64,000 nt of DNA from a virus (Duplodnaviria > Heunggongvirae > Uroviricota > Caudoviricetes): the IMG/VR virus record IMGVR_UViG_3300042445_002023. One strand, written 5' to 3'. The position numbers were made by a program, and so were the translations under genes. Positions 2,983-62,850 of this stretch are shown here, piece after piece. Numbering within the stretch: the stretch's first letter is position 1; each line of letters begins with the position of its first letter. Under the pieces are notes generated by a model. The model ran no database searches. It worked only from the letters and a program-made list of their open reading frames with translations, and was not told the DNA's origin.

Positions 2983-3074
2983 TACTACGTTACGCATATA
3001 TAAAATAATATTTTAGAAAAAGTATCTAATACTTATATGTGTATCATTACACAAACTTAATAGGAGTAAATAAA

Positions 3075-9970: not shown

Positions 9971-9972
9971 TT

Positions 9973-26827: not shown

Positions 26828-27298
26828 ATGGCAAAAAACACACCCCCACAATCAAGTGGCCCTAAGATTATAGGCCAACAGGTGAAGAATCAACTTCAAA
26901 TGAACATCGCTCCTAAATTGGAGACTAAAGATGATGAGGTTGCATTTATCAAATATGATAATCCCAAAATCATAGAACAGGTCGAAAAAGAATATCCAGA
27001 AATGACGGATGAGTTTAAACGACTTATGTTTACTCAATACGAATTGTTTTGTCTAAAACAATCAAACTACGGCCCAAACAATATTTCGGTTGGTACTAAA
27101 TTAGAAACTGCTGAGGATAAGAAATTATCACTAACGGGATTATGGTTTAGAATGAACGATAAAATCCAAAGATTAAAACAATTGGTAGTCCTAAGTAAAG
27201 AGGATTCAGTTGGGGAATCAATAGAAGATACCTTTCAAGACCTATCAGTATATGGAATTATTGCACAAATAGTTTCTAATGGTAAATGGGCAAAATAA
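26828..27298 (+). CDS. hypothetical protein (156 aa)
   Basis: Preceded by the full early motif at 26771-26800. Confidence 0.45.
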   Translation: MAKNTPPQSSGPKIIGQQVKNQLQMNIAPKLETKDDEVAFIKYDNPKIIEQVEKEYPEMTDEFKRLMFTQYELFCLKQSNYGPNNISVGTKLETAEDKKLSLTGLWFRMNDKIQRLKQLVVLSKEDSVGESIEDTFQDLSVYGIIAQIVSNGKWAK

Positions 27299-33763: not shown

Positions 33764-33766
33764 GTT

Positions 33767-34873
33767 ATGAAATTATTACTAGGAGATTGTTTAGATAAAC
33801 TTAAAGAATTAGATGATAATTCGGTGGATAGTATTGTTACTGACCCGCCATATGGACTTGCATTTATGGGCAAACACTGGGATTATGATGTTCCATCACA
33901 GCAGATATGGGAAGAATGCCTTCGTGTTCTAAAACCAGGAGGTCATATCCTTTCATTCGCGGGTAGTAGAACTTATCACAGAATGGCTGTAAGAATTGAA
34001 GATGCAGGGTTTGAGATTAGAGACCAGATTATGTGGATATATGGTTCAGGGTTTCCTAAATCACATAACATAGGACATAAGTTAGAAGAATGGCAAGGTT
34101 GGGGAACTGCTCTTAAACCGGCACATGAACCTATTGTAATGGCAAGAAAACCTTTGAGTGAAAGCACAGTAGCAGAGAATGTTTTAGAATGGGGAACTGG
34201 TGGGATAAACATAGATGGTTGCAGGATTGAACTTAATGGTGATTATAAATCAAAAGCAAATGGTAGACCCTCATTGACAGGATTAGATGATGGTTATGAT
34301 AGTAGTAACGCTAACATAGCAGATACAATAGGCAGATTTCCAGCAAATGTAATCTTTGATGAAGAAGCAGGTAGGTTATTGGATGAACAAAGTGGAGTAT
34401 CAAAATCACCAGGAGGTAGTGGGGATAAATCAATGGGAGAATTGGGCAAAAACGGTAAATATGGAAACTATGCATTAGATGTTAAAGCTGCAAATTTAGG
34501 TGGATTGGGAGATGTTGGTGGTGCTAGTAGATTTTTCTACTGTCCTAAAACATCAAAGAGTGATAGAAACGAAGGAAGTAATAACACACACCCGACTGTC
34601 AAACCAACGGATTTGATGCTATACCTTATTCGTTTGGTTACTAAAAACGATGGAACGATATTAGACCCGTTTATGGGAAGTGGAAGTACTGGTAAAGCAG
34701 CAATTAGAGGTGGTTTTGATTTTATTGGTATTGAAAGAGAAAAAGAATACTTTGAAATTTCGAAAACAAGAATTGAATATGAAAAAAACAGACCGGTTAG
34801 CAAACCAATAAAAGGAAACCGTGTAGAAGTGAAACCGGAAGTGAAAGAAAAAATAAATCAATTTTTTGAGTAA
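33767..34873 (+). CDS. DNA N6-adenine/N4-cytosine methyltransferase, beta class
   Basis: Motif IV (IVTDPPYGLAF) lies before motif I (LDPFMGSGSTGKAA); the gene is flanked by 40-bp direct repeats. Confidence 0.7.
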   Translation: MKLLLGDCLDKLKELDDNSVDSIVTDPPYGLAFMGKHWDYDVPSQQIWEECLRVLKPGGHILSFAGSRTYHRMAVRIEDAGFEIRDQIMWIYGSGFPKSHNIGHKLEEWQGWGTALKPAHEPIVMARKPLSESTVAENVLEWGTGGINIDGCRIELNGDYKSKANGRPSLTGLDDGYDSSNANIADTIGRFPANVIFDEEAGRLLDEQSGVSKSPGGSGDKSMGELGKNGKYGNYALDVKAANLGGLGDVGGASRFFYCPKTSKSDRNEGSNNTHPTVKPTDLMLYLIRLVTKNDGTILDPFMGSGSTGKAAIRGGFDFIGIEREKEYFEISKTRIEYEKNRPVSKPIKGNRVEVKPEVKEKINQFFE

Positions 34874-34912
34874 AAAACAACTTCTGCATAAAAAGTATGT
34901 AGAAAATATGGG
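34873..34912 (+). repeat. 40-bp direct repeat, copy 2
   Basis: Identical to 33720-33759; duplicates the last 12 codons and the stop of the helicase gene. Confidence 0.9.
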
Positions 34913-38590: not shown

Positions 38591-39823
38591 ATGTATATAG
38601 AGTATTTTGATAAATTTTATGGTATGACACCATATCTTTATATCGGTAAGGAAGAGTGGTCTCACATTAAAAAAACATACCAAAGAGAAGACGTTAAGGA
38701 ATCTCTTGCCAAAGTATGTATGACATATGAATTACCATATGCAGATATTTCTGAAGAGGATGCAAGAAAAGAGTATCTTAAATTAAAAGGAACTCGTTAT
38801 CACGAACTTCTAACCGAAGGTGAGTGGTTTCCTCGTAAGGCATCTGAAACCCGTTATCCATTAGGATTTCAAGGTAAACAACAATATGTAAGAAGGCTGA
38901 ATACTGGTAATGGGGCATCGAATCATTTTCAACAAGCAAATAGATGGAGCGTAGATGGGACAGTATCGCCTGGCCCATTCCGTACTTGGAATAACCCTGA
39001 TTTTATGTTTTCACTAATCGGTGGAATGTATACCCTAAAATTTGATGAGGTTAGTAAAAATACCCTAAGAACTTGTCTATCTTTAAGAAAGTATATTTGT
39101 TCTCAGTTCAAACCAAACGTAGCAAAGGCACTTTATGATTTCGTTCAAGCAAAGAATGTATTAGATATTTCTGCTGGATGGGGTGATAGATTATGTGGAT
39201 TTTTCGCATCAGAATATGGTGAGCATTATGTAGGTATTGACCCGCGTAAAGAAAATCATCCAATATACGAAAAACAAGCCGAATTCTATAAAAAGAATAA
39301 TGGTTTTTTTGAAACTGATAAGAGGGCAACCTTTCATTGTTCTCCCGCAGAGGATATGGATTATAGTGAGTATACCGATTACTTTGATATTGTATTCAGT
39401 TCGCCACCATATTTCAACGTAGAGAGATATTCATATGATGATACTCAAAGTTGGATTCGATATAAAAATATTGATGCATGGAATAAATTATTCTTACATG
39501 CAACGATTGAAAAAGTATGGCCTACTATCCGTAAGGGTGGGTATCTAGCAGTTAATATCGCAGATGTATATGCATCCTCAAAGGGTGATGGCAAAGGTCA
39601 ACAGGAAATCACTAACCCAATGAACGATTTTATTTCCACATTAGAAGGTGCAGAGTATCAAGGATGTTTAGGTATGGAAATGGCTAAGAGGCCAGGTTCA
39701 ATTGGAGCAGGTGCAATGATTGAGGGAGATGAAGACCGATATTCCGAAGAAGAAAAGCAAAAGGCAATTGAAAATGCCGGTAAAACTTTCTGCGAACCGG
39801 TATGGGTATTTAGGAAAATGTAA
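38591..39823 (+). CDS. SPPY-motif methyltransferase-like protein, paralog 1 (putative DNA amino-methyltransferase with an unrecognised N-terminal domain)
   Basis: Motif I-like DISAGWGDRLCGFFAS...HYVGIDP, then motif IV FSSPPYFN about 75 aa later; paralogous to 39828 and 48533. Confidence 0.5.
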   Translation: MYIEYFDKFYGMTPYLYIGKEEWSHIKKTYQREDVKESLAKVCMTYELPYADISEEDARKEYLKLKGTRYHELLTEGEWFPRKASETRYPLGFQGKQQYVRRLNTGNGASNHFQQANRWSVDGTVSPGPFRTWNNPDFMFSLIGGMYTLKFDEVSKNTLRTCLSLRKYICSQFKPNVAKALYDFVQAKNVLDISAGWGDRLCGFFASEYGEHYVGIDPRKENHPIYEKQAEFYKKNNGFFETDKRATFHCSPAEDMDYSEYTDYFDIVFSSPPYFNVERYSYDDTQSWIRYKNIDAWNKLFLHATIEKVWPTIRKGGYLAVNIADVYASSKGDGKGQQEITNPMNDFISTLEGAEYQGCLGMEMAKRPGSIGAGAMIEGDEDRYSEEEKQKAIENAGKTFCEPVWVFRKM

Positions 39824-39827
39824 TTTA

Positions 39828-41048
39828 ATGATAAAAGAATATTTCAAAAAGTTTTATGGAATGACCCCCTATATCAATATTGATAAGGAGGAGTGGAAAC
39901 ATATACTAAATACATTTGAAAAGGAAGAGATAGTAGAAACATTATCAGAAGTATTACATACTTATCCACCACCTATTCCTATTATTACAGAACAAGAAAC
40001 GATTGATGCATATAAAAAGTTAAAGGGTACTTGGTGGCCGGATATTTTAGTGGAGGGAGAATGGTTTCCGCGTAATGAAAGGGAATCTGCATATCCACTT
40101 ACATTTGATAGTAGTAATTATTACTTTAAAAGAACGAATGTTGGTAATAACGCATCCAACCCATTCCATATAGAAAATCGATGGAAGGTAGATTGGTCAA
40201 GAACACCATCAGGTTGGAAGACATGGCAGACAGTTAATGGTATAAAAACCATAGTTCGGGCATTCTTCACATTAGAACAAGTCCTAACTGATGTAAATAA
40301 GGAAACACTAAAGATGGCAACTACATTACGAAAGTATGTGGCATCACAATTCAAACCTGTAATTGCTAAAGCATTTTATGATAGATTCCAAAGTGAGAAT
40401 ATATTAGATTTTTCAGCAGGTTGGGGAGATAGATTATGTGGATTCTTTGCAAGTGAAACGGGTAAACATTATGTTGGTATAGACCCTAATTTAGATAATC
40501 ACCCAAATTATGAAAACCAAATAGAATTTTATCAGAAACACAAAACGTTTTTTGAGAATCCTAAAACTGTGGAACTGATAAAGTTACCGGCAGAAGATGT
40601 GGATTATTCCAAATATGAAAACTTTTTTGATACAATCTTCACTTCACCTCCATACTTCAATACTGAAAAGTATTCCACACATGATACTCAAAGTTATTTA
40701 CGCTATAAAAAGATAGATGATTGGAATACCAATTTCCTACATAAAACAATTAAAAAAATAATCCCTACCTTAAAGAAGGGTGGGTTATTAGCAGTTAATA
40801 TTGCAGATGTATTTTCAGCACCAGATAAGGGGTATGTTGATATTGTAAATGCTATGAATGACTTTATTAAATCAGAGGGATTAGAATATATGGGTTGTAT
40901 TGGAATGGAAATGACAAAAAGGTTTAATTCCGGCGGTGCAGGAAATGCTAAATCTGAATATTTTGCAGAAGAACTCAAAGAAAAAACAGAACTCAATAAA
41001 AATAATGCATTTGGTGAACCCATTTGGATTTGGAAAAAAATAAAATAA
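39828..41048 (+). CDS. SPPY-motif methyltransferase-like protein, paralog 2
   Basis: DFSAGWGDRLCGFFAS...HYVGIDP and FTSPPYFN; start placed at the ATG at 39828, directly after the paralog 1 stop, to match the paralog 1 N-terminus (MIKEYFKKFYGMTPY against MYIEYFDKFYGMTPY). Confidence 0.5.
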   Translation: MIKEYFKKFYGMTPYINIDKEEWKHILNTFEKEEIVETLSEVLHTYPPPIPIITEQETIDAYKKLKGTWWPDILVEGEWFPRNERESAYPLTFDSSNYYFKRTNVGNNASNPFHIENRWKVDWSRTPSGWKTWQTVNGIKTIVRAFFTLEQVLTDVNKETLKMATTLRKYVASQFKPVIAKAFYDRFQSENILDFSAGWGDRLCGFFASETGKHYVGIDPNLDNHPNYENQIEFYQKHKTFFENPKTVELIKLPAEDVDYSKYENFFDTIFTSPPYFNTEKYSTHDTQSYLRYKKIDDWNTNFLHKTIKKIIPTLKKGGLLAVNIADVFSAPDKGYVDIVNAMNDFIKSEGLEYMGCIGMEMTKRFNSGGAGNAKSEYFAEELKEKTELNKNNAFGEPIWIWKKIK

Positions 41049-41054: not shown

Positions 41055-41753
41055 ATGACAGTTATAGAAGCAACATCTCCGGGAGATGCATGGGTAAAGG
41101 TATCTAAACACCTTATTGCCAATGGCGTAAAGGTAGGCGATTTAACCGAAGAGTTAAACGTAATGACAGAAATCACCGAATTTAAATCTGATGAATGGTT
41201 CGACCCACATTTTAGAGAAATTATGGGAGATGATAGAATTGATTACGCAAAGACCGTAACCTTCTTAGAACCACAACCAAAGGTATCGGATAACCCATTC
41301 TTTGTAGCCGAAGAGGGATTGGAATACAAATTCATTAAAGACCACTGGCATGATTCATATTGGGGTAGAATGATTGCATGGCAAGGAACATTTAATCAAG
41401 TAGAAAATGTAATTAAAATCCTTAAAACTGGTAAAGCAGTTAAGAGATGTGAATTGATTATCTTTGACCCGAGCAGAGATGCTAGGAATCCATACTCACA
41501 ACCTTGTATGTTAGGGATTGATATTAAACCTCGTGGTGGTAAAATCTACCTAACATCAATCATTCGTTCAAATAGAGTATCCAAATCAGGTTACGCAGAT
41601 TACACTGCATTGGTTGAGATGGGTAAGTTCTTAGCGAGAGAAAGTGGTATGGAGTTAGGGAAAGTTTCAGTTTTAGCTTGTTCTTGTCATATCGGTAAAA
41701 TGAATGATGAAACGAAAAAGACTCATAAGTTATTAGAAGTATTAAATAAATAA
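41055..41753 (+). CDS. thymidylate-synthase-fold enzyme (232 aa); could be a dUMP/dCMP hydroxymethylase or a TS-like pyrimidine-modifying enzyme
   Basis: A candidate nucleophile segment, SQPCMLGIDIKPRGGKIYLTSIIRSNRVS, is similar to the ThyA active site PCH...YQRSxD; shorter than a canonical ThyA. Confidence 0.45.
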   Translation: MTVIEATSPGDAWVKVSKHLIANGVKVGDLTEELNVMTEITEFKSDEWFDPHFREIMGDDRIDYAKTVTFLEPQPKVSDNPFFVAEEGLEYKFIKDHWHDSYWGRMIAWQGTFNQVENVIKILKTGKAVKRCELIIFDPSRDARNPYSQPCMLGIDIKPRGGKIYLTSIIRSNRVSKSGYADYTALVEMGKFLARESGMELGKVSVLACSCHIGKMNDETKKTHKLLEVLNK

Positions 41754-41754
41754 T

Positions 41755-42177
41755 ATGAAAAAAGAACAACAAGAGTTCGTAGCATTTGAACCACAAAAAG
41801 TAAATAGATTTTTAATTGAATTTAATTCCCCATTTGTTATCCCAACATATGCGGTCCATAAAATGAGTGAATTAAAAGTAGTTTGTGTTTATGATGATGG
41901 GTGGGTAAATTGGGGTGATTTAACAATTGAGATGTATGAAACTTCAGAAATTCCAATTGCTTCAATTATTTGCAAGGGATTAGCAGAAAATAAATCTAAA
42001 CAAACTAATACAATTTCGTTTCAATTATTAGAATTAAATGTAGTAGGAGATATTATTCAACGTTGGGAAATCAATGCAAAGATAAAGGATATAGCATTTG
42101 GAAAATATGATTGGTTAAATGATGAGTTGAAAATGATAGAAATGAATTTAAAAGACGTAGAAGCTGATATAAAATAA
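41755..42177 (+). CDS. hypothetical protein (140 aa)
   Basis: Tightly coupled ORF inside the candidate modification cluster. Confidence 0.45.
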   Translation: MKKEQQEFVAFEPQKVNRFLIEFNSPFVIPTYAVHKMSELKVVCVYDDGWVNWGDLTIEMYETSEIPIASIICKGLAENKSKQTNTISFQLLELNVVGDIIQRWEINAKIKDIAFGKYDWLNDELKMIEMNLKDVEADIK

Positions 42178-42182
42178 ATAAT

Positions 42183-43688
42183 ATGTGTGGAATTGTAGCA
42201 ACGATTGGATATAAAAGAGATGATGTGAATGTAATGCTCGAAGCAATTGAGCATCGTGGTAGAGATAATCGTGGTATTAAAGAATTCCAATATAACGATA
42301 AACATATTATCTTAGGACATAACCGATTATCAATCAACGATACTTCACCATTGGGTAATCAACCTATGGAATGGGATGGAGTTGAATTGGTAGTCAATGG
42401 TGAGATTTGGAACTATCCTCAATTGCGTAAAGAATACGAAGGAAGGGGGTATCACTTTAAATCTAATTCAGATTCAGAAATTATTCTATATCTTTACAAG
42501 GAAGGTGAATTAAAGAGATTAGAGGGTATGTTCTCATTCATTATATACGATAATGATAAGTTGATACTATCGAGGGACTGGGTGGGTAAATTGCCCCTTT
42601 ATATTCACAATACAAACAACTATATCATCGCTAGTGAATTGAAATCCATTACAACACAGGTAAAGAGTTCAGATATTAAGTTTGTACCTAAGAATTCATT
42701 GGTAGAAATTGATTTAAATACTGATACGATTGTAGTTCATAAAGATTATTATTTTCAATTCTCAAACGAACCTACTATACCGGCATCACATGAAGAAGTT
42801 GGTGAAACTACATTTAAGTTATTAGAAACTGCAGTAGATAAAAGATTATTATCAGATGTACCAATTGCTACATCACTAAGTGGTGGGATTGATTCTGCAA
42901 TCATTACCTACCTACTATCACAACGTATACCAAACCTAAAAGCATACACAATTGCATTTGATGAAACCTCAAAGGATTTACAAAAGGCAAGAGTATGTGC
43001 GGAGTATTTAGGAGTGGAGTTAGTTGAAGTATTTGTTCCTAAAGATGAAGAAATAATTAAACAAAGATTTTTAGATTCAATTAGAGTAATCGAATATCCA
43101 TCGACCGTTCAAATGGAAGTGGGTATCCTACAATCCTTTATTGCAGAACAAATGGCAAGAGATGGTATTAAGGTAGCATTTAGTGGTGAGGGTTCTGATG
43201 AATCCTATGGTTCGTATGGTACATTCCGTATGTTCAGTAAGAAACCAGATTGGAGTGATGTTCGTAAAAAGTTATTTGAAAAACAATACTATGGTAACCT
43301 ATTAAGAGGTAATACTATCTTTATGAATTATGGAACAATCGAATTAAGATGCCCATTCTTTGATACCGAATTTTTAAACTATACTACTAATTTAACCGAT
43401 GAATACTTATCTAAAGGAGGTCAATGGAAATTACCACTTGCTAATGCATTCAGAGGTAAACTGCCTGATGAGATTTTAGACCAGGAAAAAAGAGCATTTC
43501 AAAAAGGAACAAATTTTAAACAATACATCGAAGAAATCATTTTAAAAGATGAATCTATTAATTTTAAGAAAAGAAAAAATATGATTCATGTCATTGGTGA
43601 TAACTTTGAAAAAATACACGGGTTCTCTCATAGAAAAATGAAAGGAGAATTAACGTCAAACTCAGGAGGAATATATCAATGGATTTAA
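42183..43688 (+). CDS. asparagine-synthetase-like enzyme: class II glutamine amidotransferase fused to a PP-loop ATP pyrophosphatase
   Basis: N-terminal Met-Cys-Gly (MCGIV) nucleophile and PP-loop motif SLSGGIDSA; 501 aa. Confidence 0.65.
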   Translation: MCGIVATIGYKRDDVNVMLEAIEHRGRDNRGIKEFQYNDKHIILGHNRLSINDTSPLGNQPMEWDGVELVVNGEIWNYPQLRKEYEGRGYHFKSNSDSEIILYLYKEGELKRLEGMFSFIIYDNDKLILSRDWVGKLPLYIHNTNNYIIASELKSITTQVKSSDIKFVPKNSLVEIDLNTDTIVVHKDYYFQFSNEPTIPASHEEVGETTFKLLETAVDKRLLSDVPIATSLSGGIDSAIITYLLSQRIPNLKAYTIAFDETSKDLQKARVCAEYLGVELVEVFVPKDEEIIKQRFLDSIRVIEYPSTVQMEVGILQSFIAEQMARDGIKVAFSGEGSDESYGSYGTFRMFSKKPDWSDVRKKLFEKQYYGNLLRGNTIFMNYGTIELRCPFFDTEFLNYTTNLTDEYLSKGGQWKLPLANAFRGKLPDEILDQEKRAFQKGTNFKQYIEEIILKDESINFKKRKNMIHVIGDNFEKIHGFSHRKMKGELTSNSGGIYQWI

Positions 43689-44518
43689 AACTAAAAGGAT
43701 TAACCGAAGATACCCCATTAGAACTTTATCACATTAAGGGTAGAGAAGTATGGGTAAAGAGGGATGACTTGATGGGCGATGGTATGATATTACCGCCGTG
43801 GGGTAAATTAGCAGCATTATTTGAATTGGTTAAAAAATATATTGATAAATCAAAACCACTGGTTCACCTTTCCGTAGATGGTAGTTGGACAGCATGGGCA
43901 TTGAGTGCAATATGTGAGGAATTGGGAATTGAATTTTATGCAGCACACCCTGATTCTAAAAAGATATCACAGGAATATTTGAGAATGATTAAGGAAATGC
44001 ATCCTAAAACAAACCTATATCCAATTAGACCTAATATGATGCAGATTATGTATAATTCGTTAAAGAAAGATGCAAGAGAAAGGGGATGGCAAATGTTACC
44101 TTACGCTTTTGACCACGATTTCTATAAAGATTATCTTGCAGATAGAATTCAACCCCTTGCCCATTTTGATAATTTAGTAGTATCATCTGGTAGTGGTGTA
44201 ACTCTTGCAGGATTAGCAAGAGGATATTATAGAGAGGAACTTAAAGAGTTTTTTCCACAAGTTAAAAAGAAGATTTGGACAACATGTGTATCATCGGTTA
44301 GTTCAATCAATAAAACACTTAAAAAGAGTGGGATTCCAATTCCCCTAAATATACGAAAATCAGAGTATCTATTTGAGAATAGATTAGATGGTTACGAAAC
44401 CCCATTCCCTTGCAACCAATTTTGGGATGTAAAGCAATGGAAGTGGTTAGAAGAAAACATAGACCAAATCGAAGGAACTATTCTATTCTGGAATATTGGT
44501 GGAATTTACAAATTTTAA
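43679..44518 (+). CDS. PLP-dependent fold-type II enzyme of the ACC deaminase / D-cysteine desulfhydrase family
   Basis: Collinear matches to the D-cysteine desulfhydrase family: TPLELYHIKGREVWVKRDDL (family: TPLEYL...REIFIKRDDV), VVSSGSGVTLAGLA, and LFWNIGG; overlaps the upstream stop by 10 nt. Confidence 0.55.
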   Translation: MDLKLKGLTEDTPLELYHIKGREVWVKRDDLMGDGMILPPWGKLAALFELVKKYIDKSKPLVHLSVDGSWTAWALSAICEELGIEFYAAHPDSKKISQEYLRMIKEMHPKTNLYPIRPNMMQIMYNSLKKDARERGWQMLPYAFDHDFYKDYLADRIQPLAHFDNLVVSSGSGVTLAGLARGYYREELKEFFPQVKKKIWTTCVSSVSSINKTLKKSGIPIPLNIRKSEYLFENRLDGYETPFPCNQFWDVKQWKWLEENIDQIEGTILFWNIGGIYKF

Positions 44519-44530: not shown

Positions 44531-44773
44531 ATGGCAGGTGATATAAAAAAGAAGAGTTCATTTAAACCACATAAGATATCTTTACCAAAAGAAGGTAGTT
44601 TAAAAGCTGAAAAATGGTTCAATCGTAGAGAGGAAGAACTGCGTAAAAAACAAATAAAACAAGAGTTACTTAATCAAGGAATTGATATAAATAAAAAACC
44701 ACCATTTGTAATTAAAGATGGGATACCTCATAAAATAGTTGATGGTAAATTAGTTCCATTAAAAAAACTATAA
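44531..44773 (+). CDS. hypothetical basic protein (80 aa)
   Basis: ORF only. Confidence 0.4.
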   Translation: MAGDIKKKSSFKPHKISLPKEGSLKAEKWFNRREEELRKKQIKQELLNQGIDINKKPPFVIKDGIPHKIVDGKLVPLKKL

Positions 44774-44840
44774 TTAAAACAAAAATGTAAAATTGGGTGT
44801 TAAATCCAATTTATTTTATATTTATAAACAAATAACAAGG

Positions 44841-45206
44841 ATGTCCAATATGATAAAGTTAAAGAATCTAATTACCGAATTCGGCGGAAAACAATTTAAA
44901 GGAGCTGAAGGAATCCCTGCTAATAAATCTTTGGAAAAAATTAGTAAGACTGAAAAGTTAAATATAATCAAAGGTAAAGGTAATATTATTGATTTTATCG
45001 TTCCTGATGAATATAAAGGTAAAAGAAACTTTTGGCAAGTAATATCTACCGGTAGTATTAAAAAATCCTCATCTGGTAAGATTGTTATGTTAATGGGTGG
45101 TGGTCTGATAAATTCTCCATCATTTGATACCATTGATGATTTGATTGATGGTGTGAATTGGAAATCAATGGAAGAGAGAAGAAGATTTAATGAATCAATA
45201 AAATAA
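44841..45206 (+). CDS. hypothetical protein (121 aa)
   Basis: Start taken at the ATG at 44841 after AAGGA; the track began at 44793. Confidence 0.4.
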   Translation: MSNMIKLKNLITEFGGKQFKGAEGIPANKSLEKISKTEKLNIIKGKGNIIDFIVPDEYKGKRNFWQVISTGSIKKSSSGKIVMLMGGGLINSPSFDTIDDLIDGVNWKSMEERRRFNESIK

Positions 45207-45233
45207 TAAAATTACACATAAAAAGTTACAGAT

Positions 45234-50169: not shown

Positions 50170-51522
50170 ATGATTAATATAGTATCAAGAGAACCTCAAT
50201 TATTTTCCTTATTCGGTAAATCTAAATTTAAACAATTAGAACTAACACCGGAGTATAAAGTACTCAATCTTACGCATGAAGGTGAGGAATTTCAGATTAA
50301 GTTATTTAGTGATTTCGATGAAAATAATATTGTGTGGATGACACGCGATGATAGAGGTCAGGAAATTACAAATCATAATTTCTTTGCTACTAATCAAGAT
50401 TCCATTTTTATTAACCCACCTGAAAATGCAACTTTCATTTTAGATAGATGGCAATTTGTAGGGGTATGGGTTAAACTATTTAGAGTGTTTGGTATTGGGT
50501 TTGTAAAACAACTTGAAAAAGTATATAAGGAACGTAATTGTAGAATAGCGTTTGGATTATCATATTTTGAACCTTGTGATTATGAAGCAGACCACTATGT
50601 GGGATGTATTAATGATTACGATTTTGATTATATCAAAATGGCTGATTATCCATTATTTGAAGGATTGAAAAATACTAAGGTAAATACATTCAATTCACTT
50701 TGGAATTACATTTATGATATTCTTGCATTTGAGGTATCACCAAATAACTGGCAACAAATCCTAAATGGTGAAGAAACGTTTTACGATTGGTTACATAGAT
50801 TGGTAGAACCAATTAAAGATAGGGAAAAAGTATTTGGAATGTTGGGTGGTAAACCACGTTATCATAGATTATATTTTATTAATAACATTATAGAAAATGG
50901 GTTGATTGATAAGGGATATGTAACTATGAATAAGTTCTTTTTCAAAGAATATTCAGAAATGGTAAGAACTAAAAATCCAAATACTGATGGAACTAATTTA
51001 ATCAAATCCGAAGTATACAAGTATTGGAATAGTGATTTTTATAAACCAATATCACACTACGATAAGATTTACGACCCATTAGGAGAGCATAAACGATTTG
51101 AATATTCAACTGAAAATATTGTCAATAAAGATTACAACAAAAGTTATATTGAAGTGGTGGGTGAAACTCATATACTATTTAATAAATTATTTGATTTTTG
51201 GTCTGAAAAAACATATCATGGATTATTCTTTGAAAAATTATATATTTCAGTAGGTTCAAATAAATTTTATAGAGAATTTGAGAAATTGGGAGGCCATACC
51301 TTTATAAAAGAATTGGGAATCAATCCTTTATTTTTAGAAACTGAAGACCCGATTAAACAAATGGATTATGTAATTGAAGCATTAGGGAATATATCACTGG
51401 AAGATGCTAAAAGAATTTATTTAGAAAATTTACCTAAAATTAAACATAATAAGAAATTAATTTTAGATTGGATTTATAATGAAATGAATTATTTTAGAGA
51501 GTTTATCCTTATTAAGAAATAA
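50170..51522 (+). CDS. hypothetical protein (450 aa)
   Basis: Starts 3 nt after the paralog 3 stop; no motif. Confidence 0.45.
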   Translation: MINIVSREPQLFSLFGKSKFKQLELTPEYKVLNLTHEGEEFQIKLFSDFDENNIVWMTRDDRGQEITNHNFFATNQDSIFINPPENATFILDRWQFVGVWVKLFRVFGIGFVKQLEKVYKERNCRIAFGLSYFEPCDYEADHYVGCINDYDFDYIKMADYPLFEGLKNTKVNTFNSLWNYIYDILAFEVSPNNWQQILNGEETFYDWLHRLVEPIKDREKVFGMLGGKPRYHRLYFINNIIENGLIDKGYVTMNKFFFKEYSEMVRTKNPNTDGTNLIKSEVYKYWNSDFYKPISHYDKIYDPLGEHKRFEYSTENIVNKDYNKSYIEVVGETHILFNKLFDFWSEKTYHGLFFEKLYISVGSNKFYREFEKLGGHTFIKELGINPLFLETEDPIKQMDYVIEALGNISLEDAKRIYLENLPKIKHNKKLILDWIYNEMNYFREFILIKK

Positions 51523-51543
51523 AACAAATAATATTTATACATA

Positions 51544-52131
51544 ATGACATCGAAAGAATACGTTATATGGCTTAAAGGTTTTGTAGAAGCCTGCCACGAA
51601 TACGCACCAACTCCAAAACAATGGGATGCGTTAAAAGATAAATTGGTAGAGGTTAAGGATGAAGAACCAATAGGATTTCCGTTTGGAGTTCCTAATACTG
51701 CACCAATACAAACATTACCATTTATCCAACCATATAACCCATATAACCCATATCAAATAAATTGTGGTAGTGGTTCATCTGGAACAATAACAACAACACC
51801 TGGTCAAAGTTCTATTACATACGCAACACCACAATTTGTAACATCAACTCCATCAGCAACTGCATATGGGTATCCAAGTGGGAGTACAATGAGTTATACT
51901 AATTCAACATGGAAACCGGAACACGGCCCAAATTCTCCAACTATACAAAATATAAACAAATCATTAGGCGAATCATTAGAGGAATTAGAAAATGATTTCT
52001 TTGGTGCAATTGATGATGGTGGTTGGACACCTGAATTGGAGCAACAATTTTGGTCTGAACAACCTCCTGAACCATTTGCAACACCTGAGGAATTAGCAAA
52101 ATATAATACGGATACAACACAAAATAAATAA
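51544..52131 (+). CDS. hypothetical protein (195 aa) with an acidic C-terminus; possible clamp-loader small subunit
   Basis: Lies directly upstream of the clamp loader; low-complexity PYNPYNPYQ segment; assignment is speculative. Confidence 0.3.
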   Translation: MTSKEYVIWLKGFVEACHEYAPTPKQWDALKDKLVEVKDEEPIGFPFGVPNTAPIQTLPFIQPYNPYNPYQINCGSGSSGTITTTPGQSSITYATPQFVTSTPSATAYGYPSGSTMSYTNSTWKPEHGPNSPTIQNINKSLGESLEELENDFFGAIDDGGWTPELEQQFWSEQPPEPFATPEELAKYNTDTTQNK

Positions 52132-52132: not shown

Positions 52133-53080
52133 ATGGCATTTTTCGAAGAAAATATAAAAGAAGAAACCCCCAACACACTTTGGGTTGAAAAATATCGTCC
52201 TAAGAAATTAGAGGATTATGTTGGCAATGACCATTTAAAACAAAAGATTCGCGATTATATTGAAAGTGGAGATGTCCCACATTTACTTTTATTTGGTAAA
52301 GCGGGAACAGGTAAAACCACTCTTGCAAAGTTGATTGTTAATTCAATCAATTGTGATTTTATGATACTAAACGCATCTGATGAAAACAATGTGGATACTG
52401 TCCGTAATAAAGTAAAATCATTTGCATCTACAATTGGGTTTAAAGATATAAAAATTGTTATCTTAGATGAGTTTGATTATATGACTCCTCAGGCTCAAGC
52501 AATCCTTAGAAATCTAATGGAAACATTTAGTAAACATTGTCGATTCATTTTGACTTGTAACTATGTGGAGAAAATCATTGACCCGATACAAAGTAGATGC
52601 CAAACCTTTCAGATTATACCACCCACTAAAAAAGATGTGGCAGTACAAATTAGTAAAATATTAACAGAGGAACGAATCCAATTTGAATTAAAAGAATTAG
52701 TTCCAATAGTAGATTCATCATATCCAGATATTCGTAAAATTATTAATACCTGTCAACTTAATTCCTCAAAGGGAATATTAAAAATTGATAGTAGTAGTAT
52801 ATCTGATGCAGATGTTAGAGTAAAAATTATAGATATTCTTAAATCAAAGGATGATAAGAGAAATCGTTATGTAAATCTAAGACAAGCAGTTGCAGATTCT
52901 CGTATACAAGATTTTACTGAATTATACACCCATCTTTACGAAAAGGTAAACGATTATGCAGTGGGTAATACTTCTGCCGTAATTATGATTCTCGCACAAG
53001 GACAATACAAAGATGCTATGATTGTAGATAAGGAGATTTGTTTTATGGCAACTCTTATCGAAATAAACGATGTGATATGA
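52133..53080 (+). CDS. clamp loader AAA+ ATPase subunit (gp44/RFC-like)
   Basis: Walker A (LLFGKAGTGKTTLAKL), Walker B (VILDEFD), SRC-like motif (QSRCQTF). Confidence 0.7.
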   Translation: MAFFEENIKEETPNTLWVEKYRPKKLEDYVGNDHLKQKIRDYIESGDVPHLLLFGKAGTGKTTLAKLIVNSINCDFMILNASDENNVDTVRNKVKSFASTIGFKDIKIVILDEFDYMTPQAQAILRNLMETFSKHCRFILTCNYVEKIIDPIQSRCQTFQIIPPTKKDVAVQISKILTEERIQFELKELVPIVDSSYPDIRKIINTCQLNSSKGILKIDSSSISDADVRVKIIDILKSKDDKRNRYVNLRQAVADSRIQDFTELYTHLYEKVNDYAVGNTSAVIMILAQGQYKDAMIVDKEICFMATLIEINDVI

Positions 53081-53391
53081 TAGAGTTGGTTAATGATAAT
53101 CTTAAAGAAATTATTAATAACCATTCTAAGGTATTCATAATGTTCTACGCAGATTGGTGTCCTGATTGTGCAAAGATAAAACCTCACTTTGAAAGATTAT
53201 CTACATATTATGAAAATATATCATTTGTGTATATCAATGCAGATGAATCACCAAAGAGTAGGAGCATTATCAATTTAACGAATATACCTACGTTTCTAGG
53301 AGTCTTTGAGGGAAATATAGTAGAAACACCCCTAATAGGAAGTAAACCTGAAAAAATCGAAGAATACCTTCAAAAAATAGTATCCTTATAA
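53077..53391 (+). CDS. thioredoxin-fold protein
   Basis: WCPDC CxxC motif; start taken at the ATG that overlaps the upstream stop (ATGA). Confidence 0.55.
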   Translation: MIELVNDNLKEIINNHSKVFIMFYADWCPDCAKIKPHFERLSTYYENISFVYINADESPKSRSIINLTNIPTFLGVFEGNIVETPLIGSKPEKIEEYLQKIVSL

Positions 53392-53671: not shown

Positions 53672-53980
53672 ATGTCAACAGAAGTACAATTAGCAAAACC
53701 ATTAGGAGATAGAGTCCTAATTAAAGTAGAGTCAGGAGAAAAAAAGATTGGTGGAATCATCATACCAGACACTGTTCAAGATGGTGATAACAAATTTGGT
53801 ATAATTGTTTCAGTAGGGAATGGTATTTATACCCAAAATGGAGCTAAAATTCCAATGGAAGTATCAGTAGGTGATAAAGTATTATTACCGCATGGTGGAA
53901 TGAATATTCAAAAAATTAAATTAGATGATACTGAATATTTCTTATGTAGAGAAATGGATTTATTAATGGTTATAAAATAA
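53672..53980 (+). CDS. groES: co-chaperonin GroES (Cpn10) homolog
   Basis: LAKPLGDRVLIKVESGEKKIGGIIIPDTVQD...GIIVSVGNG matches the GroES consensus along its length. Confidence 0.7.
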   Translation: MSTEVQLAKPLGDRVLIKVESGEKKIGGIIIPDTVQDGDNKFGIIVSVGNGIYTQNGAKIPMEVSVGDKVLLPHGGMNIQKIKLDDTEYFLCREMDLLMVIK

Positions 53981-55879: not shown

Positions 55880-57274
55880 ATGACAGAAGTAAGAAAGAAA
55901 AAGAAAATTCTTTTATTATCCGATGATTTCAGAATGTCCTCTGGTATAGCAACTGTATCAAAAGAATTAATTTTTGGTACATTGGATAAGTACGATTGGA
56001 TACAATTAGGTGCAGCAGTAGAACATCCTGAAAAAGGTAGAGAAATTGATTTAGGTGATGATGCTAGAAAAATTAGTGGTGTATTTGATGCTTCAGTTAA
56101 AATCGTTCCGTGGAGTGGTTATGGTGATGCTGATATTTTACGCGAGTTAATAATGAGACATCAACCTGATGCAATCCTACACTTTACCGACCCTCGTTAT
56201 TGGAGATGGTTGTATGATATGGAAGCAGAATTACGTGAAAACGTACCTATTTTCTTTTATCATATTTGGGATGATTTACCAGACCCTCAATATAATAGAG
56301 ATTATTATGAGAGTTGTGATTGGTTAGGATGTATTTCTAAACAAACATATGGTATTGTACGAAGAGTAGGACAAAGAACTGATTCACCAACATTCAAACC
56401 CCTTGAAGATTGGCAAGTATCATATGTACCGCATGGTATTAACTCAAATACCTTCAAACCTGCTGAAGTACCTGATGAATTCCGTAAAAGAGTATTAGGT
56501 GATAAAGATTATAAATTTGTCCTATTTTGGATGAATCGTAATATCAAACGAAAACAACCATCCGATGTCATTTGGGCATATAAACGCTTTGTAGATTCTT
56601 TACCAATTGAAGATAGAGATAAGACTTGCCTAATTATGCATACCCAAGCGGTTGACCAAAACGGAACGGATTTGTTTAAAGTAAAGGAAACCATTTGTCC
56701 TGATTACGAAGTTAAGTTCTCAGAAACTAGAATTTCACAAGAGGAATTAAATTGGTATTATAACTTATCAGATGTTACTATTAACATTGCAGGTAACGAA
56801 GGATTTGGATTAACAACTGCAGAATCAGTAATGGCCGGAACTCCTATTATTGTAAACGTTACGGGTGGATTACAAGACCAATGTGCATTTACATTAGATG
56901 GTAAAGAATTAACGGCAGAAGATTATGTGAAAATCGGTTCGGTACATGATTGGAGAGTATGGGCAGATAAGTTAGGACATGGAGAATGGGTTAACCCAGT
57001 ATTCAGTAAAGTTCAAACACTTGTAGGTTCAGTTCCAACGCCATATATTATTGATGATAAGGTTGATATTTACGAAGTTGCTGATGCAATGAAGTATTGG
57101 TATGATATTCCTAAGAAAGACCGTAAAAAGAGAGGTTTAGCGGGCAGGGAATGGATGTTAAACGAAGGTGGATTAAATCATACAAATATGTGTAAAACTC
57201 TTTCTGATGGTATGGAAACAGCTTTCCAAAATTGGAGACCTAAAGATAGATTTGGATTATATAAATTAAAATAA
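55880..57274 (+). CDS. glycosyltransferase, GT-B fold, family 4-like
   Basis: E-x7-E region NEGFGLTTAESVMAGTPIIV. Confidence 0.6.
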   Translation: MTEVRKKKKILLLSDDFRMSSGIATVSKELIFGTLDKYDWIQLGAAVEHPEKGREIDLGDDARKISGVFDASVKIVPWSGYGDADILRELIMRHQPDAILHFTDPRYWRWLYDMEAELRENVPIFFYHIWDDLPDPQYNRDYYESCDWLGCISKQTYGIVRRVGQRTDSPTFKPLEDWQVSYVPHGINSNTFKPAEVPDEFRKRVLGDKDYKFVLFWMNRNIKRKQPSDVIWAYKRFVDSLPIEDRDKTCLIMHTQAVDQNGTDLFKVKETICPDYEVKFSETRISQEELNWYYNLSDVTINIAGNEGFGLTTAESVMAGTPIIVNVTGGLQDQCAFTLDGKELTAEDYVKIGSVHDWRVWADKLGHGEWVNPVFSKVQTLVGSVPTPYIIDDKVDIYEVADAMKYWYDIPKKDRKKRGLAGREWMLNEGGLNHTNMCKTLSDGMETAFQNWRPKDRFGLYKLK

Positions 57275-57275
57275 T

Positions 57276-57701
57276 ATGAAAGTTAATATAAAAAGGTTAC
57301 AAGAAAATGCAATACTCCCATTTTACGCAAAAGAAAGTGATGCGGGCATGGATTTGGTAGCAACATCAATTAAAGAGAATACTACATTTCAAATAACATA
57401 CGGATTGGGTATAGCATTAGAAATACCAGATGGGTTTATGGGTTTAATTTTCCCGCGTTCATCTATTAGAAATACGGAACTTATTTTAAGCAATTCAGTT
57501 GGAGTAGTTGATGCTGGATATAGAGGAGAACTTCAAGCAACATTCGTTAAATCTAATGGACTTGATTCCCTAGCATATAAAGTGGGAGATAGAGTGTGTC
57601 AACTTATAATCATACCACACCCAATCGTAGAATGGACAGAAGTAAATGAATTAAATAATACCGAAAGAGGAGCCGGAGGTTTCGGTTCAACAGGAAAATA
57701 A
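57276..57701 (+). CDS. dut: dUTP pyrophosphatase (dUTPase)
   Basis: Contains the five conserved dUTPase sequence blocks (AGMDLVA, PRSSI, GVVDAGYRGE, RGAGGFGSTGK). Confidence 0.75.
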   Translation: MKVNIKRLQENAILPFYAKESDAGMDLVATSIKENTTFQITYGLGIALEIPDGFMGLIFPRSSIRNTELILSNSVGVVDAGYRGELQATFVKSNGLDSLAYKVGDRVCQLIIIPHPIVEWTEVNELNNTERGAGGFGSTGK

Positions 57702-57711
57702 AAAATAAAAT

Positions 57712-58998
57712 ATGAGCAAACCATTATTAGTATTTCAAGCACCAGTTTTTACAAGGAGTGGATATGGTGACCATAGTAGAGATTTACTTCAGAGTTTATT
57801 TGATTTAGATAAATATGATGTGAAAGTAGTACCAACTCGTTGGGGTTCTACACCACAAAATCAACTCGATGGTGTGAGTGAATTTAGTAAAAAAGTATTG
57901 AGTAGTGTCATTACAACGTTAGATAGAGAACCGGATGTATATATTCAGGTTACAGTTGCTAATGAATTTAAAAAAATGGGTAAATACAATATTGGTATTA
58001 CCGCAGGAGTTGAAACTACTTTAGCACCAAAGGATTTTATTGATGGTTGTAATAGAATGGATTTAGTTTTAGTACCATCTAACTTTACAAAAGAGGTATT
58101 ACAAAAAACTTCGTTTTCTGAAGTGGATAAAGCATCAGGTCAAAAAATTAGAGATATAAGTGTTCAAACTCCAATTGAAGTTCTTTTCGAAGGAGTTGAT
58201 TTAGATATTTTTTTAAATAGAACTAATCAAGAAACTGATGTTCTTATTAATACTGAAAAATTAGATAAAAAAATTGAAACTGATTTTAATTTCTTATTTG
58301 TAGGTCATTGGTTGAGTGGAGATTTAGGACAAGACAGAAAAGATGTAGGAATGTTAATTAAAACATTTTGTACTATTTTTAAATCCGTTCCAAAAAATAA
58401 ACAACCCGGTTTGATATTAAAAACATCTATGGCTGGATTTAGTATTATCGATAGAGAAGAGATTAGTGAAAAAATTAAAACCATAACAAAAGAATATGGT
58501 GAAAACTGTCCACCTATTTATTTATTATTTGGAGATATGAAATCAAGCGAAATAGCAAATTTATATCATCATCCAAAAGTAAAGGCTATGTTATCATTTA
58601 CTAAGGGTGAAGGGTATGGTAGACCACTTGCAGAGTTTGCTACAACGGGTAAACCTATTATAGTTTCAAAATGGAGTGGATTGACTGATTTTTTACCTGA
58701 AACTAATACTATTTATTTGGATGGAGAATTAACAAATGTCCACCCATCAGCAGCAAACCAATTCTTAATGGCGGAATCACAATGGTTCTCCGTAAATTAT
58801 TCAACTGCAGCACAAAAAATAATGGATGTATTTAAAAATTATAATAAATATTTAGATAGTTCAAAGGGATTACAATCAAATATTAAAAATAATTTTTCAT
58901 TAACAAAAATGACAGAAGTATTTGGCAATTTACTTAACAAATATGTTAAAGTTACAACTCGTGTTGAATTAAAATTACCTAAACTAAACAAATTATAA
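57712..58998 (+). CDS. glycosyltransferase, GT-B fold, family 4-like
   Basis: GEGYGRPLAEFATTGKPIIVS. Confidence 0.6.
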   Translation: MSKPLLVFQAPVFTRSGYGDHSRDLLQSLFDLDKYDVKVVPTRWGSTPQNQLDGVSEFSKKVLSSVITTLDREPDVYIQVTVANEFKKMGKYNIGITAGVETTLAPKDFIDGCNRMDLVLVPSNFTKEVLQKTSFSEVDKASGQKIRDISVQTPIEVLFEGVDLDIFLNRTNQETDVLINTEKLDKKIETDFNFLFVGHWLSGDLGQDRKDVGMLIKTFCTIFKSVPKNKQPGLILKTSMAGFSIIDREEISEKIKTITKEYGENCPPIYLLFGDMKSSEIANLYHHPKVKAMLSFTKGEGYGRPLAEFATTGKPIIVSKWSGLTDFLPETNTIYLDGELTNVHPSAANQFLMAESQWFSVNYSTAAQKIMDVFKNYNKYLDSSKGLQSNIKNNFSLTKMTEVFGNLLNKYVKVTTRVELKLPKLNKL

Positions 58999-58999
58999 A

Positions 59000-61014: not shown

Positions 61015-61238
61015 TGGCATTATTAAAATTAGATTGTCAATCAAGCGTTAAAGCACAAGGAAAATTTGTCACTCAAATAATACATTTTGTAGGTGGAGAA
61101 AAACGAACTTTTGAAAATATAGAATCAGATTATATTAAGCAAGGTCAGTTTACTAAACTTATGACAAGTGATGGTAGAATGATTTTAGTAAACGATAAGA
61201 ACGTATTATGTATAGAAGTATTCCAACAACCAGAATAA
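61014..61238 (+). CDS. hypothetical protein (74 aa)
   Basis: ORF only. Confidence 0.35.
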   Translation: MALLKLDCQSSVKAQGKFVTQIIHFVGGEKRTFENIESDYIKQGQFTKLMTSDGRMILVNDKNVLCIEVFQQPE

Positions 61239-61242
61239 AAAT

Positions 61243-61833: not shown

Positions 61834-61836
61834 TAT

Positions 61837-62832: not shown

Positions 62833-62850
62833 TAAATAAAAAACCCAATT

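Follow-up and report, generated by a model that had tools for sequence, protein, structure and literature searches.

SPPY-motif methyltransferase-fold paralogues in the replication module of an uncultured aquatic phage, predicted to act on phage DNA

DNA amino-methyltransferases of the N4-cytosine and N6-adenine types (REBASE Type II and orphan enzymes; PF01555 and PF07669, Eco57I) are built on the class I Rossmann SAM fold, with a motif I glycine loop, acidic motifs II and III and an (S/D/N)PP(Y/F) loop after β4. The N4-cytosine enzymes have a PROSITE-type signature, [LIVMF]-T-S-P-P-[FY]. Most bacterial N4-cytosine methyltransferases use SPPY as their catalytic motif, as opposed to DPPY or NPPY (PMC8885841). 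In Synechococcus phage S-B43, the CmoA–CmoX–CmoY 5-carboxymethylcytosine pathway includes CmoX, a C5-methyltransferase homologue that has an SPPC motif, binds carboxy-SAM through Arg350 and is usually accompanied by CmoA, and CmoY, an AsnB homologue that is a proven DNA-adduct amide ligase and of which a GATase-bearing subclass has been described (PMC12783734). The thymidine hypermodification clusters of phages M6 (gp51–54), ViI and PaMx11 represent a combinatorial ‘sculpting’ toolkit, in which M6 gp52 is a proven decarboxylase of amino-acid adducts in DNA (PMC8989533); the described clusters contain no SPPY methyltransferase-like genes. Here, we analyse three methyltransferase-like genes, denoted P1, P2 and P3, in a stretch of 64,000 nucleotides of DNA (IMG/VR record IMGVR_UViG_3300042445_002023; hereafter the window) from an abundant uncultured aquatic phage, whose lineage is among the most widespread of aquatic myoviruses. 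Our literature search found no paper describing this family and no characterised member, and homologues in the phage records searched have no annotation beyond hypothetical protein or an automatic methylase label. P1–P3 have the same fold and core motifs as the DNA amino-methyltransferases and are likewise orphan and phage-borne, but their extra domain lies N-terminal to the core, with motif I followed by motif IV, and the domain proposed to serve in recognition resembles no known fold.

Catalytic and N-terminal domains of P1, P2 and P3

All three open reading frames of the original prediction, which had been made from the nucleotide sequence, were confirmed (Table 1). The start of P2 is assigned to the ATG at 39828 and not to the TTG at 39720, because homologues of 401–410 amino acids align from the methionine at that ATG. 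The proposed three-way paralogy holds along the full length for P1 and P2 (51% identity, E 1e-154), whereas P3 is related to them in its C-terminal catalytic domain of roughly 240 amino acids only: pairwise alignments of P3 with P1 (29% identity, E 6e-24) and P2 (34% identity, E 3e-28) are confined to the C-terminal 220–245 residues or so, and hhalign pairs residues 173–410 of P1 with residues 294–544 of P3 at a probability of 99.8%. In a regular-expression search, four of the five collinear motif blocks that had been proposed, DxS(A/S)GWG(D/G)R, HY(V/I)G(I/T)DP, F(S/T)SPPYFN and (L/I)xxNIAD(V/I), occur in all three proteins, and the fifth, Y(F/I)xKFYGMTPY, occurs in P1 and P2 only.

Table 1 Position and main characteristics of the genes and domain discussed
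Feature	Coordinates	Strand	Description
P1	38591..39823	+	410 aa; novel basic helical N-terminal domain (aa 1–186), then class I SAM-methyltransferase domain (aa 187–410)
P1 N-terminal domain	38591..39148	+	aa 1–186; mostly helical; pI 8.96; no known fold or family
P2	39828..41048	+	406 aa; P1 paralogue along full length; strain-variable accessory gene
P3	48533..50167	+	544 aa; 293-aa N-terminal region, then homologous SPPY catalytic domain (aa 294–544)
DPPY N6/N4 DNA methyltransferase	33767..34873	+	PF01555, 126.9 bits; PHROG 67, E 6e-80
Thymidylate-synthase-like protein	41055..41753	+	232 aa; weak Pfam, PHROG and NCBIfam matches
AsnB-like glutamine amidotransferase and adenylating synthetase	42183..43688	+	Profile matches
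PLP (PALP-fold) enzyme	43679..44518	+	Homologue of Pseudomonas phage M6 gp52

The catalytic domain has the seven-stranded α/β fold, glycine-rich motif I and acidic β2 and β3 ends of class I SAM-methyltransferases. In P1, motif I reads D192-x3-G196-W-G198-D-R200, motif II is represented by D217, motif III by E254-D255 and motif IV by S271-P-P-Y274, which in the structural model directly follows the β4 strand (residues 265–270); a (D/N/S)PP(Y/F/W) motif IV in this position is the mark of the amino-methyltransferases (N6A, N4C, N2G or Gln-N5). D192, G196, G198, D199, R200, D217, E254, D255, S271, P272, P273 and Y274 are invariant in 77 P1/P2-family sequences, the motif residues are likewise invariant within the P3 family, and SPPY is invariant across both sets (77 + 34 sequences). 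The fold and these invariant residues bear out the methyltransferase-like nature originally proposed for the three proteins, with SPPY as motif IV. P2 and P3 match the N4-cytosine pattern (FTSPPY); P1 in the window reads FSSPPY, and the P1-family consensus is FTSPPY.

The weak profile matches of P1–P3 are all to DNA methylases: PF01555 and Eco57I in Pfam, PHROG 498 and 67, and PADLOC Type II methyltransferase models, one of which is collinear with the paralogues across motifs I–IV. Against PF01555 (cutoff 26.7 bits), P2 scores 27.0, P3 26.0 and P1 17.1 bits in alignments that cover only profile positions 2 to 60–106 of 221, the motif-IV end. The order of motif I before motif IV with no recognition domain between them is γ-like and differs from that of classical β-class SPPY N4-cytosine enzymes; on account of this order and the partial alignment, we do not place P1–P3 in the β-class PF01555 family. 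Among phage families, P1 and P2 match PHROG 12517 best (E 1e-15 to 1e-17, catalytic domain); this family is unannotated, covers part of the protein only and conveys no functional information. Searches with P2, the P1/P2 profile and the P3 profile returned no sequence relatives with solved structures.

The N-terminal domain of about 186 amino acids, originally thought to be shared by all three proteins, is common to P1 and P2 only, and there it indeed matches no known fold or family. P3, which had been described as carrying this domain plus an extension of about 300 amino acids, has instead a different N-terminal region of about 293 amino acids in its place, which is either unrelated or too distant for a relationship to be detected. 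Comparison of the N-terminal regions alone, P1/P2 against P3, gave no significant profile–profile match (probability 2.4%, E 0.019); hhalign of the family profiles recovers the C-terminal domain only, and we rejected homology between the two regions as unproven. With a more diverse profile, the P3 alignment reaches into the N-terminal region at near-zero confidence. A short collinear resemblance, PPxI...(Y/F)KKLK, occurs at residues 51–71 of P3 and 47–67 of P2. The P1/P2 domain is basic (pI 8.6–9.0) and the catalytic domain acidic (pI 4.9–5.6), and the two proteins diverge most in the basic domain (43–46% identity, against 56–57% in the catalytic domain). On the basis of this charge and divergence, we propose that the N-terminal domain may serve in nucleic-acid binding or target-site recognition.

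Distribution and predicted action on phage DNA

The P1–P3 family has thousands of homologues in freshwater and marine metagenomes and is essentially restricted to viruses and mobile elements: among 185,579 species genomes there were 19 matches, all on MAG contigs. In the three of these contexts that we inspected, the neighbours included an integrase, PolB and RecA, or a MazZ-like protein, and none of the ten neighbouring proteins scanned contains an endonuclease domain. A role as restriction-modification methylases was rejected, as no cognate endonuclease or specificity subunit was found nearby in the window, where the neighbours are replication and nucleotide-metabolism genes, and no endonuclease domain in the three contexts inspected. 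In every relative examined, the genes lie in a replication module beside PolB, the clamp and the clamp loader, and P3 always directly follows the sliding-clamp gene; it is highly conserved, with its best 120 homologue clusters 78–99% identical. The fourth methyltransferase-like gene, encoding the DPPY enzyme, is a genuine canonical β-class N6_N4 methylase, as had been predicted, and its topology is unrelated to that of P1–P3. The count of four such genes in 17 kb is thus correct, and two of the four are strain-variable accessories: a relative with 96–98% nucleotide identity in the flanking blocks (L010) cleanly lacks P2 and the DPPY gene, both of which are exact gene-sized indels, and P1 and P3 are present in it and throughout the closest lineages. 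Such presence and absence between near-identical genomes is typical of anti-restriction accessories.

Our best explanation, to which we assign about as much weight as to everything else combined, predicts that P1, P2 and P3 are SAM-dependent orphan enzymes of amino-methyltransferase type whose substrate is the phage’s own DNA. In the Rossmann domain, SAM would be held by motif I (DxSAGWGDR), by the acidic residue at the end of β2 (HYVGID) and by motif III (AED); a flipped-out base would fit the pocket that the (S/T)SPPY loop makes after β4, and the methyl group would be placed on an exocyclic amino nitrogen, for which the Ser-Pro-Pro-Tyr form points to N4 of cytosine. DNA binding and the choice of site would come from the basic helical N-terminal domain in P1 and P2 and from the unrelated 293-aa region in P3, so that each paralogue may mark a different site and, with the DPPY enzyme, help to hide the genome from host restriction; P1 and P3 would be conserved members of the replication module, and P2 and the DPPY enzyme swappable accessories. 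The anti-restriction role originally suggested fits the restriction of the family to viruses and mobile elements without an endonuclease, the P2 and DPPY indels and the divergence of the paralogues’ N-terminal domains. If the proteins are plain methylases, their combination of a novel N-terminal domain with a following γ-like SPPY core would be an architecture not seen before, a single phage would hold several specificities, and natural pairs of genomes with and without P2 would permit motif assignment from meta-epigenomic data.

Tailoring-enzyme genes beside the P1 family

An alternative suggestion of the original prediction, that the proteins act on a modified base, gained unexpected contextual support: P1-family genes recur beside genes for AsnB-like, GNAT and M6-gp52-like PLP enzymes. 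Of 43 loci with full flanks, 20 have an AsnB-like gene no more than 3.5 kb away from the P1-like gene, and AsnB-like matches were found in only 14 of 50,697 phage records. GNAT or PLP genes take the AsnB position in further arrangements. Altogether there are at least five syntenic arrangements: Trx-AsnB'-GNAT-P1; clampLoader-AsnB'-GNAT-P1; TS-like-AsnB-PLP-P1 or P1-P2-TS-like-AsnB-PLP; AsnB''-2-hydroxyacid dehydrogenase-PLP-P1-Asp/Asn-hydroxylase-like; and PLP'-P1. The GNAT neighbour had no match in the phage database. These recurrent neighbours suggest that the role of P1 may go beyond simple methylation.

In the window, the best phage homologue of the AsnB-like protein is gp124 of Streptomyces phage TurkishDelight (32% identity, 90% coverage), a GATase-type CmoY-like gene; it is flanked by an SPPC methyltransferase, gp123, and a methyltransferase, gp125, read as CmoX-like and CmoA-like, respectively. 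The locus therefore resembles that of S-B43 in placing a methyltransferase-fold protein of DNA-modifying type beside an asparagine-synthetase-like amide ligase or amidotransferase. P1–P3 are not CmoX enzymes, however: they have Tyr where CmoX has its catalytic Cys and otherwise show no C5-methyltransferase similarity, and tblastn with gp123 and gp125 found nothing significant for CmoX or CmoA in the window. The PLP enzyme aligns with M6 gp52 (tblastn, 96% coverage, E 4e-16; phmmer, 70 bits), and its 64 phage-database matches (52 Pseudomonas, 9 Bordetella and 3 others) are mainly M6/YuA-like and Bordetella phages, all 30 of the matches listed individually being in line with this tally. The thymidine-cluster toolkit also has counterparts in the acetyltransferase, amidoligase/glutaminotransferase and TS-family hydroxymethylase neighbours. 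In contrast to the thymidine clusters, no 5-hmdU DNA kinase, aGPT-Pplase/amino-acid:DNA transferase or radical-SAM enzyme was detected in the window; phmmer searches of all window ORFs with M6 gp51, gp53 and gp54 gave nothing better than E 0.16, and the M6 kinase, transferase and radical-SAM enzyme were not found in related loci either. With gp52 as the only one of M6 gp51–54 that has a homologue in the window, we rejected a cluster of the 5-HMUDK plus aGPT-Pplase type. The thymidylate-synthase-like protein, which has only distant and uninformative ‘thymidylate synthase’ matches in the phage database, retains the catalytic Cys and, in an alignment to the CMP hydroxymethylase MilA, has Asp at the position equivalent to Asn177 of thymidylate synthase, and we infer a probable cytosine-nucleotide C5 hydroxymethylase or methylase.

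It is possible, at clearly lower probability than plain methylation, that P1, and perhaps P2 and P3, act on DNA at the core of a variable cassette for base hypermodification. P1 might attach to an exocyclic amine a SAM-derived group other than methyl, such as 3-amino-3-carboxypropyl, or carboxymethyl from carboxy-SAM; the AsnB-like enzyme could then amidate the carboxylate, the GNAT could acetylate the amine, and decarboxylation would fall to the gp52-like PLP enzyme. Tyw2 is a methyltransferase-fold enzyme that transfers 3-amino-3-carboxypropyl. Alternatively, P1 might methylate an amine or amide of an adduct built by the neighbouring enzymes. The case for such a cassette is made by the several distinct arrangements in which tailoring enzymes flank P1-family genes, by the rarity of AsnB-like proteins in other phages and by the kinship of the window enzymes to a proven DNA-adduct decarboxylase and to a CmoY-like protein. 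Moreover, searches of the window for known installing enzymes (M6 kinase, M6 amino-acid:DNA transferase, CmoX and CmoA) gave no homologue, and the SPPY proteins are thus its only visible candidates for base flipping. In the closest isolate, Mel-JY01, on which we found no literature, the 32.5 kb around PolB contain no SPPY genes and no such cassette, and its genome gave no tblastn match to P1 or P3 at the thresholds used. Several points speak against the cassette. Roughly half of the P1-family loci, among them most of those in the PolB-clamp-P1-clampLoader class, have no tailoring gene next to P1, which argues that P1 works without such genes, and adjacency may reflect only a common insertion hot-spot or a general ‘DNA-modification island’. 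Furthermore, the canonical methyl-transfer motifs are all intact, with no sequence sign of another donor or SAM orientation; CmoA was not found in the window; and the TS-like gene suggests pyrimidine C5, not an exocyclic amine, as the cassette target. We regard as rather unlikely the specific proposal that the SPPY proteins are base-flipping installers of an undescribed exocyclic-amine DNA hypermodification, for example aminocarboxypropyl or carboxyalkyl, whose adduct is diversified by swappable AsnB-like, GNAT, PLP, dehydrogenase and hydroxylase modules. A link between P1 and the adjacent cassettes would give this lineage a DNA hypermodification pathway lacking the known installing enzymes searched for, extending phage DNA-modification enzymology and offering new DNA-labelling tools.

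RNA, protein and regulatory alternatives

The structural neighbours of the model are RNA and small-molecule methyltransferases as much as DNA methyltransferases, and so the fold gives no preference to DNA as the substrate. The top neighbours include the tRNA m2G enzymes TrmN, Trm11 and Trm14, the rRNA m6A enzyme METTL5 and HEMK2; the RNA enzymes among these likewise place a substrate-binding domain N-terminal to a Rossmann domain with (D/N)PPY, and JGI pipelines call some homologues ‘RsmD’. P1–P3 might accordingly be RNA or protein methyltransferases (tRNA or rRNA m2G or m6A, or HemK-like glutamine) that remodel host or phage translation, with an N-terminal domain that binds RNA or protein. 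We consider this improbable. P1–P3 have no sequence-level relationship to these neighbours and no match in Pfam or NCBIfam to RsmD/Cons_hypoth95, THUMP or any RNA-methyltransferase family; the RsmD assignment (16S rRNA m2G966 methylase) was rejected as there was no PF03602 match and no NCBIfam match at all. The N-terminal domain shows no resemblance to THUMP or to any solved RNA-binding fold, Ser replaces the Asp or Asn of the motif in a form characteristic of DNA N4-cytosine enzymes, and the weak profile matches described above favour DNA. The window contains no tRNA genes, and the P1–P3 genes are embedded in a viral replication module. Finally, inactive methyltransferase-like partners are known from other systems, and the tandem layout and three copies would permit subfunctionalisation, but it is very improbable that at least one paralogue is catalytically dead and assists another as a subunit for DNA binding or regulation, given that the SAM-binding and catalytic residues are all invariant in the three subfamilies and that P1-type genes are solitary in many genomes.

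Catalytic and N-terminal domains of P1, P2 and P3

The three SPPY-motif methyltransferase-like proteins of the window, P1, P2 and P3, share a catalytic domain, and P1 and P2 align from end to end (51% identity, E = 1e-154). The start of P2, an ATG at 39828, is supported by homologues of 401–410 aa. The matches of P3 to P1 (29% identity, E = 6e-24) and to P2 (34%, E = 3e-28) cover only the C-terminal ~220–245 residues, and profile–profile comparison pairs P1 173–410 with P3 294–544 at a probability of 99.8%. The first 293 residues of P3 have no detectable homology to the N-domain of P1 (residues 1–186) and P2 (profile–profile probability 2.4%); a more diverse profile added columns at low confidence only, and a short collinear resemblance, PPxI...(Y/F)KKLK, is a hint only. 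The original prediction of three paralogues with a common N-terminal domain thus holds for the catalytic domains, the novel N-domain being present in two copies, not three: four of the five motif blocks assigned to all three proteins occur in each of them, and the YFxKFYGMTPY block occurs in P1 and P2 only.

Within the P1/P2 family the positions for SAM binding and catalysis do not vary (D192, G196, G198, D199, R200, D217, E254, D255 and S271-P-P-Y274), and the same is true of the P3 family. Motif I precedes motif IV without an inserted domain, a gamma-like order that differs from the one in beta-class enzymes of PF01555, among them the DPPY methylase at 33767 (126.9 bits to that profile). P2, P3 and P1 score 27.0, 26.0 and 17.1 bits, respectively, against PF01555 (cutoff 26.7), marginal matches that cover only its motif-IV end, and generic Methyltransf_23/25/31 profiles cover motifs I–III. 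PHROGs returned family 12517, whose function is unknown, and weak matches to DNA-methyltransferase families, PADLOC weak Type II MTase models and NCBIfam no match. A Ser-Pro-Pro-Tyr motif is a reported hallmark of N4-cytosine DNA methylases (PMC8885841), and P2 and P3 match FTSPPY. We found no characterised member of the family, which is large and has a new architecture, an unclassified N-domain joined to a gamma-like SPPY core, within a known methyltransferase superfamily.

A phmmer search of 1.84 billion cluster representatives found the N-domain in 199 proteins, and among the matches examined it mostly lies at the N terminus of 360–430-aa proteins with the same MTase domain behind it. Two P1-family sequences (P0369 and P0454) have LAGLIDADG homing endonucleases inserted in the N-domain region or ahead of it. 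Structural relatives of the N-domain in BFVD are limited to four proteins. Three are from giant viruses (A0A3G5AD75, A0A481Z6B6 and A0A481Z5K5): a Satyrvirus protein of 699 aa labelled ‘glutathione synthase’ and a pair from Pithovirus labelled ‘Type I R-M methyltransferases’. The fourth is an unnamed viral protein. In the Satyrvirus protein an ATP-grasp ligase may be fused to an MTase, which, if true, would link the SPPY family to amide-forming enzymes. The N-domain is basic (pI 8.6–9.0), whereas the catalytic domain is acidic (4.9–5.6), and P1 and P2 differ more in it than in the catalytic domain (46% versus 57% identity); this charge and divergence are consistent with nucleic-acid recognition but are not proof of it.

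Genomic setting and distribution

The window has a low GC content (~32%), and every gene lies on the + strand. Judged by its gene content, the phage is a myovirus, because it has a tail sheath gene and a T4-style replication module (gp32-like SSB, UvsX/RecA, FEN, DnaB, RNR, thioredoxin, PolB, clamp and clamp loader). No nucleotide match was found among 50,697 phage records. The closest isolate by PolB is Microcystis phage Mel-JY01 (51% amino-acid identity); tblastn of P1 and P3 against its genome gave no match at the thresholds used, and P1, P2, the TS-like, AsnB-like and PLP genes and P3 are all missing from the inspected 32.5-kb stretch around its PolB.

Coordinates of features in the window
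Feature	Position	Strand	Remarks
Tail sheath gene	3039–5474	+	
DUF1599 ORF	26828–27298	+	156 aa
DPPY methylase	33767–34873	+	
P1	38591–39823	+	410 aa
P2	39828–41048	+	406 aa
TS-like gene	41055–41753	+	catalytic Cys
AsnB-like glutamine amidotransferase	42183–43688	+	GATase + synthetase
PLP enzyme	43679–44518	+	M6 gp52 homologue
P3	48533–50167	+	544 aa
orf450	50170–51522	+	450 aa; strain-variable
Second thioredoxin	53038–53391	+	
GroES (Cpn10)	53672–53980	+	
Glycosyltransferase run	55880–63495	+	
dUTPase	57276–57701	+	inside glycosyltransferase run

JGI, ENA, Logan and Tara data contain 2856 metagenomic homologues of P1, 2090 of P2 and 2181 of P3 at E ≤ 0.001, the contigs reaching ~289 kb; P3 is the most conserved, its best 120 clusters being 78–99% identical. 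The 185,579 species genomes yielded 19 matches only, all on MAG contigs. Three of these contexts were inspected and adjoin an integrase, PolB and RecA, or a MazZ-like dNTP diphosphohydrolase, with no endonuclease domain in the ten neighbouring proteins scanned. L093, a CPR contig from a Paceibacterota MAG, has a distant member of the P1 family at 9071–10072; next comes a MazZ-like gene for a dATP/dGTP diphosphohydrolase (PF18909), a type known from 2-aminoadenine phage genomes.

P1-type genes of relatives occupy the thioredoxin/PolB–clamp, clamp/clamp-loader or clamp-loader/clampA interval, and the clamp gene always precedes P3 there. The IMG/VR contig L010, whose P1 is 100% identical to that of the window as a protein, shows 96–98% nucleotide identity to the window in long shared blocks and 83–92% in two shorter ones. 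Precise gaps remove from it the DPPY methylase (window 33764–34874), P2 (39824–41050), two small ORFs (44532–45219) and orf450 (50170–51528), the gene directly after P3, which matches nothing in Pfam, PHROG or NCBIfam; ~690 bp at window ~52113–52116 are present in L010 only. P2 and the DPPY enzyme are thus accessory; P1 and P3 are kept.

Probable tailoring genes near P1

The TS-like, AsnB-like and PLP genes immediately follow P2. The TS-like protein has Asp at the TS Asn177 position, as in cytosine-specific homologues such as MilA, and established knowledge of TS and dCMP hydroxymethylases suggests a cytosine substrate. Among the 50,697 phage records, 64 match the PLP enzyme: 52 come from Pseudomonas phages, 9 from Bordetella phages and 3 from others, and the 30 matches listed are to M6/YuA-like and Bordetella phages. 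Its match in Pseudomonas phage M6 is gp52 (96% coverage, E = 4e-16), shown by experiment to be a PLP decarboxylase acting on glycine–thymine adducts in DNA (PMC8989533). CmoY proteins, which are AsnB homologues, are proven ligases on 5-carboxymethylcytosine in DNA and include a subclass with a glutaminase domain (PMC12783734). The best phage match of the AsnB-like protein is a GATase-type CmoY-like gene of Streptomyces phage TurkishDelight (32% identity, 90% coverage), whose neighbours are a C5-MTase-like gene with SPPC, a methyltransferase interpreted as CmoA-like, and ParB genes. The three genes (41055–44518) are probably a cassette for DNA base hypermodification; the window has no homologue of the known installers sought (M6 kinase, M6 amino-acid:DNA transferase (aGPT-Pplase), radical-SAM isomerase, CmoX and CmoA).

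We surveyed 80 IMG/VR loci; of the 43 with full flanks, 20 have an AsnB-like gene no more than 3.5 kb from the P1-type gene. The arrangements include Trx-AsnB'-GNAT-P1, clampLoader-AsnB'-GNAT-P1, TS-like-AsnB-PLP-P1, AsnB''-2-hydroxyacid dehydrogenase-PLP-P1-Asp/Asn-hydroxylase-like and PLP'-P1. Amino-acid-type enzymes of other kinds accompany the P1-like gene in further lineages: in L043 (6734–12400) it is surrounded by a 2-hydroxyacid dehydrogenase and a cupin resembling Asp/Asn beta-hydroxylases, and in L046 (12865–16824) a class II aaRS-like gene and a fragment of an AMP-binding enzyme lie a few kb from it. Roughly half of the loci, most of the PolB-clamp-P1-clampLoader class among them, lack an adjoining tailoring gene. 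What surrounds these genes suggests that a very abundant lineage of aquatic phages has a DNA-modification island not yet described.

Possible functions and other genes of the window

The best-supported reading, to which we give an even chance, is that P1–P3 are orphan DNA amino-methyltransferases: they would methylate DNA, probably at N4 of cytosine, through novel recognition modules, and may place several protective marks. This reading fits the conserved position of the genes in the replication module, the restriction of the family to viruses, the absence of partner endonucleases and the accessory status of P2, and the earlier proposal of anti-restriction methyltransferases is in part supported. 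The main alternative, possible but rather doubtful, couples P1 functionally to the neighbouring hypermodification cassettes, where it would either add a SAM-derived group other than methyl or act as the methylase of the adduct. Their adjacency recurs in different syntenic frames and the installers searched for are missing from the window, but many loci are cassette-free, the methyl-transfer motifs are intact and the TS-like gene is C5-directed. An RNA or protein substrate, compatible with the fold alone, is improbable, given no family-level support in Pfam or NCBIfam and no tRNA genes within the window.

The glycosyltransferase run (two GT4, two GT2 and Glyco_trans_1_2, with a Methyltransf_24 protein and an NAD-dependent sugar epimerase/dehydratase) is probably independent of the SPPY genes, because the matching region of Mel-JY01 has annotated glycosyltransferases too. 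The DUF1599 (‘nucleotide modification associated domain 1’) ORF lies upstream of the genes for a ResIII-type helicase and for the gp32-like SSB. The second thioredoxin and GroES genes lie between clamp-loader subunits, and in relatives (L001) GroEL (Cpn60) lies between PolB and the clamp.
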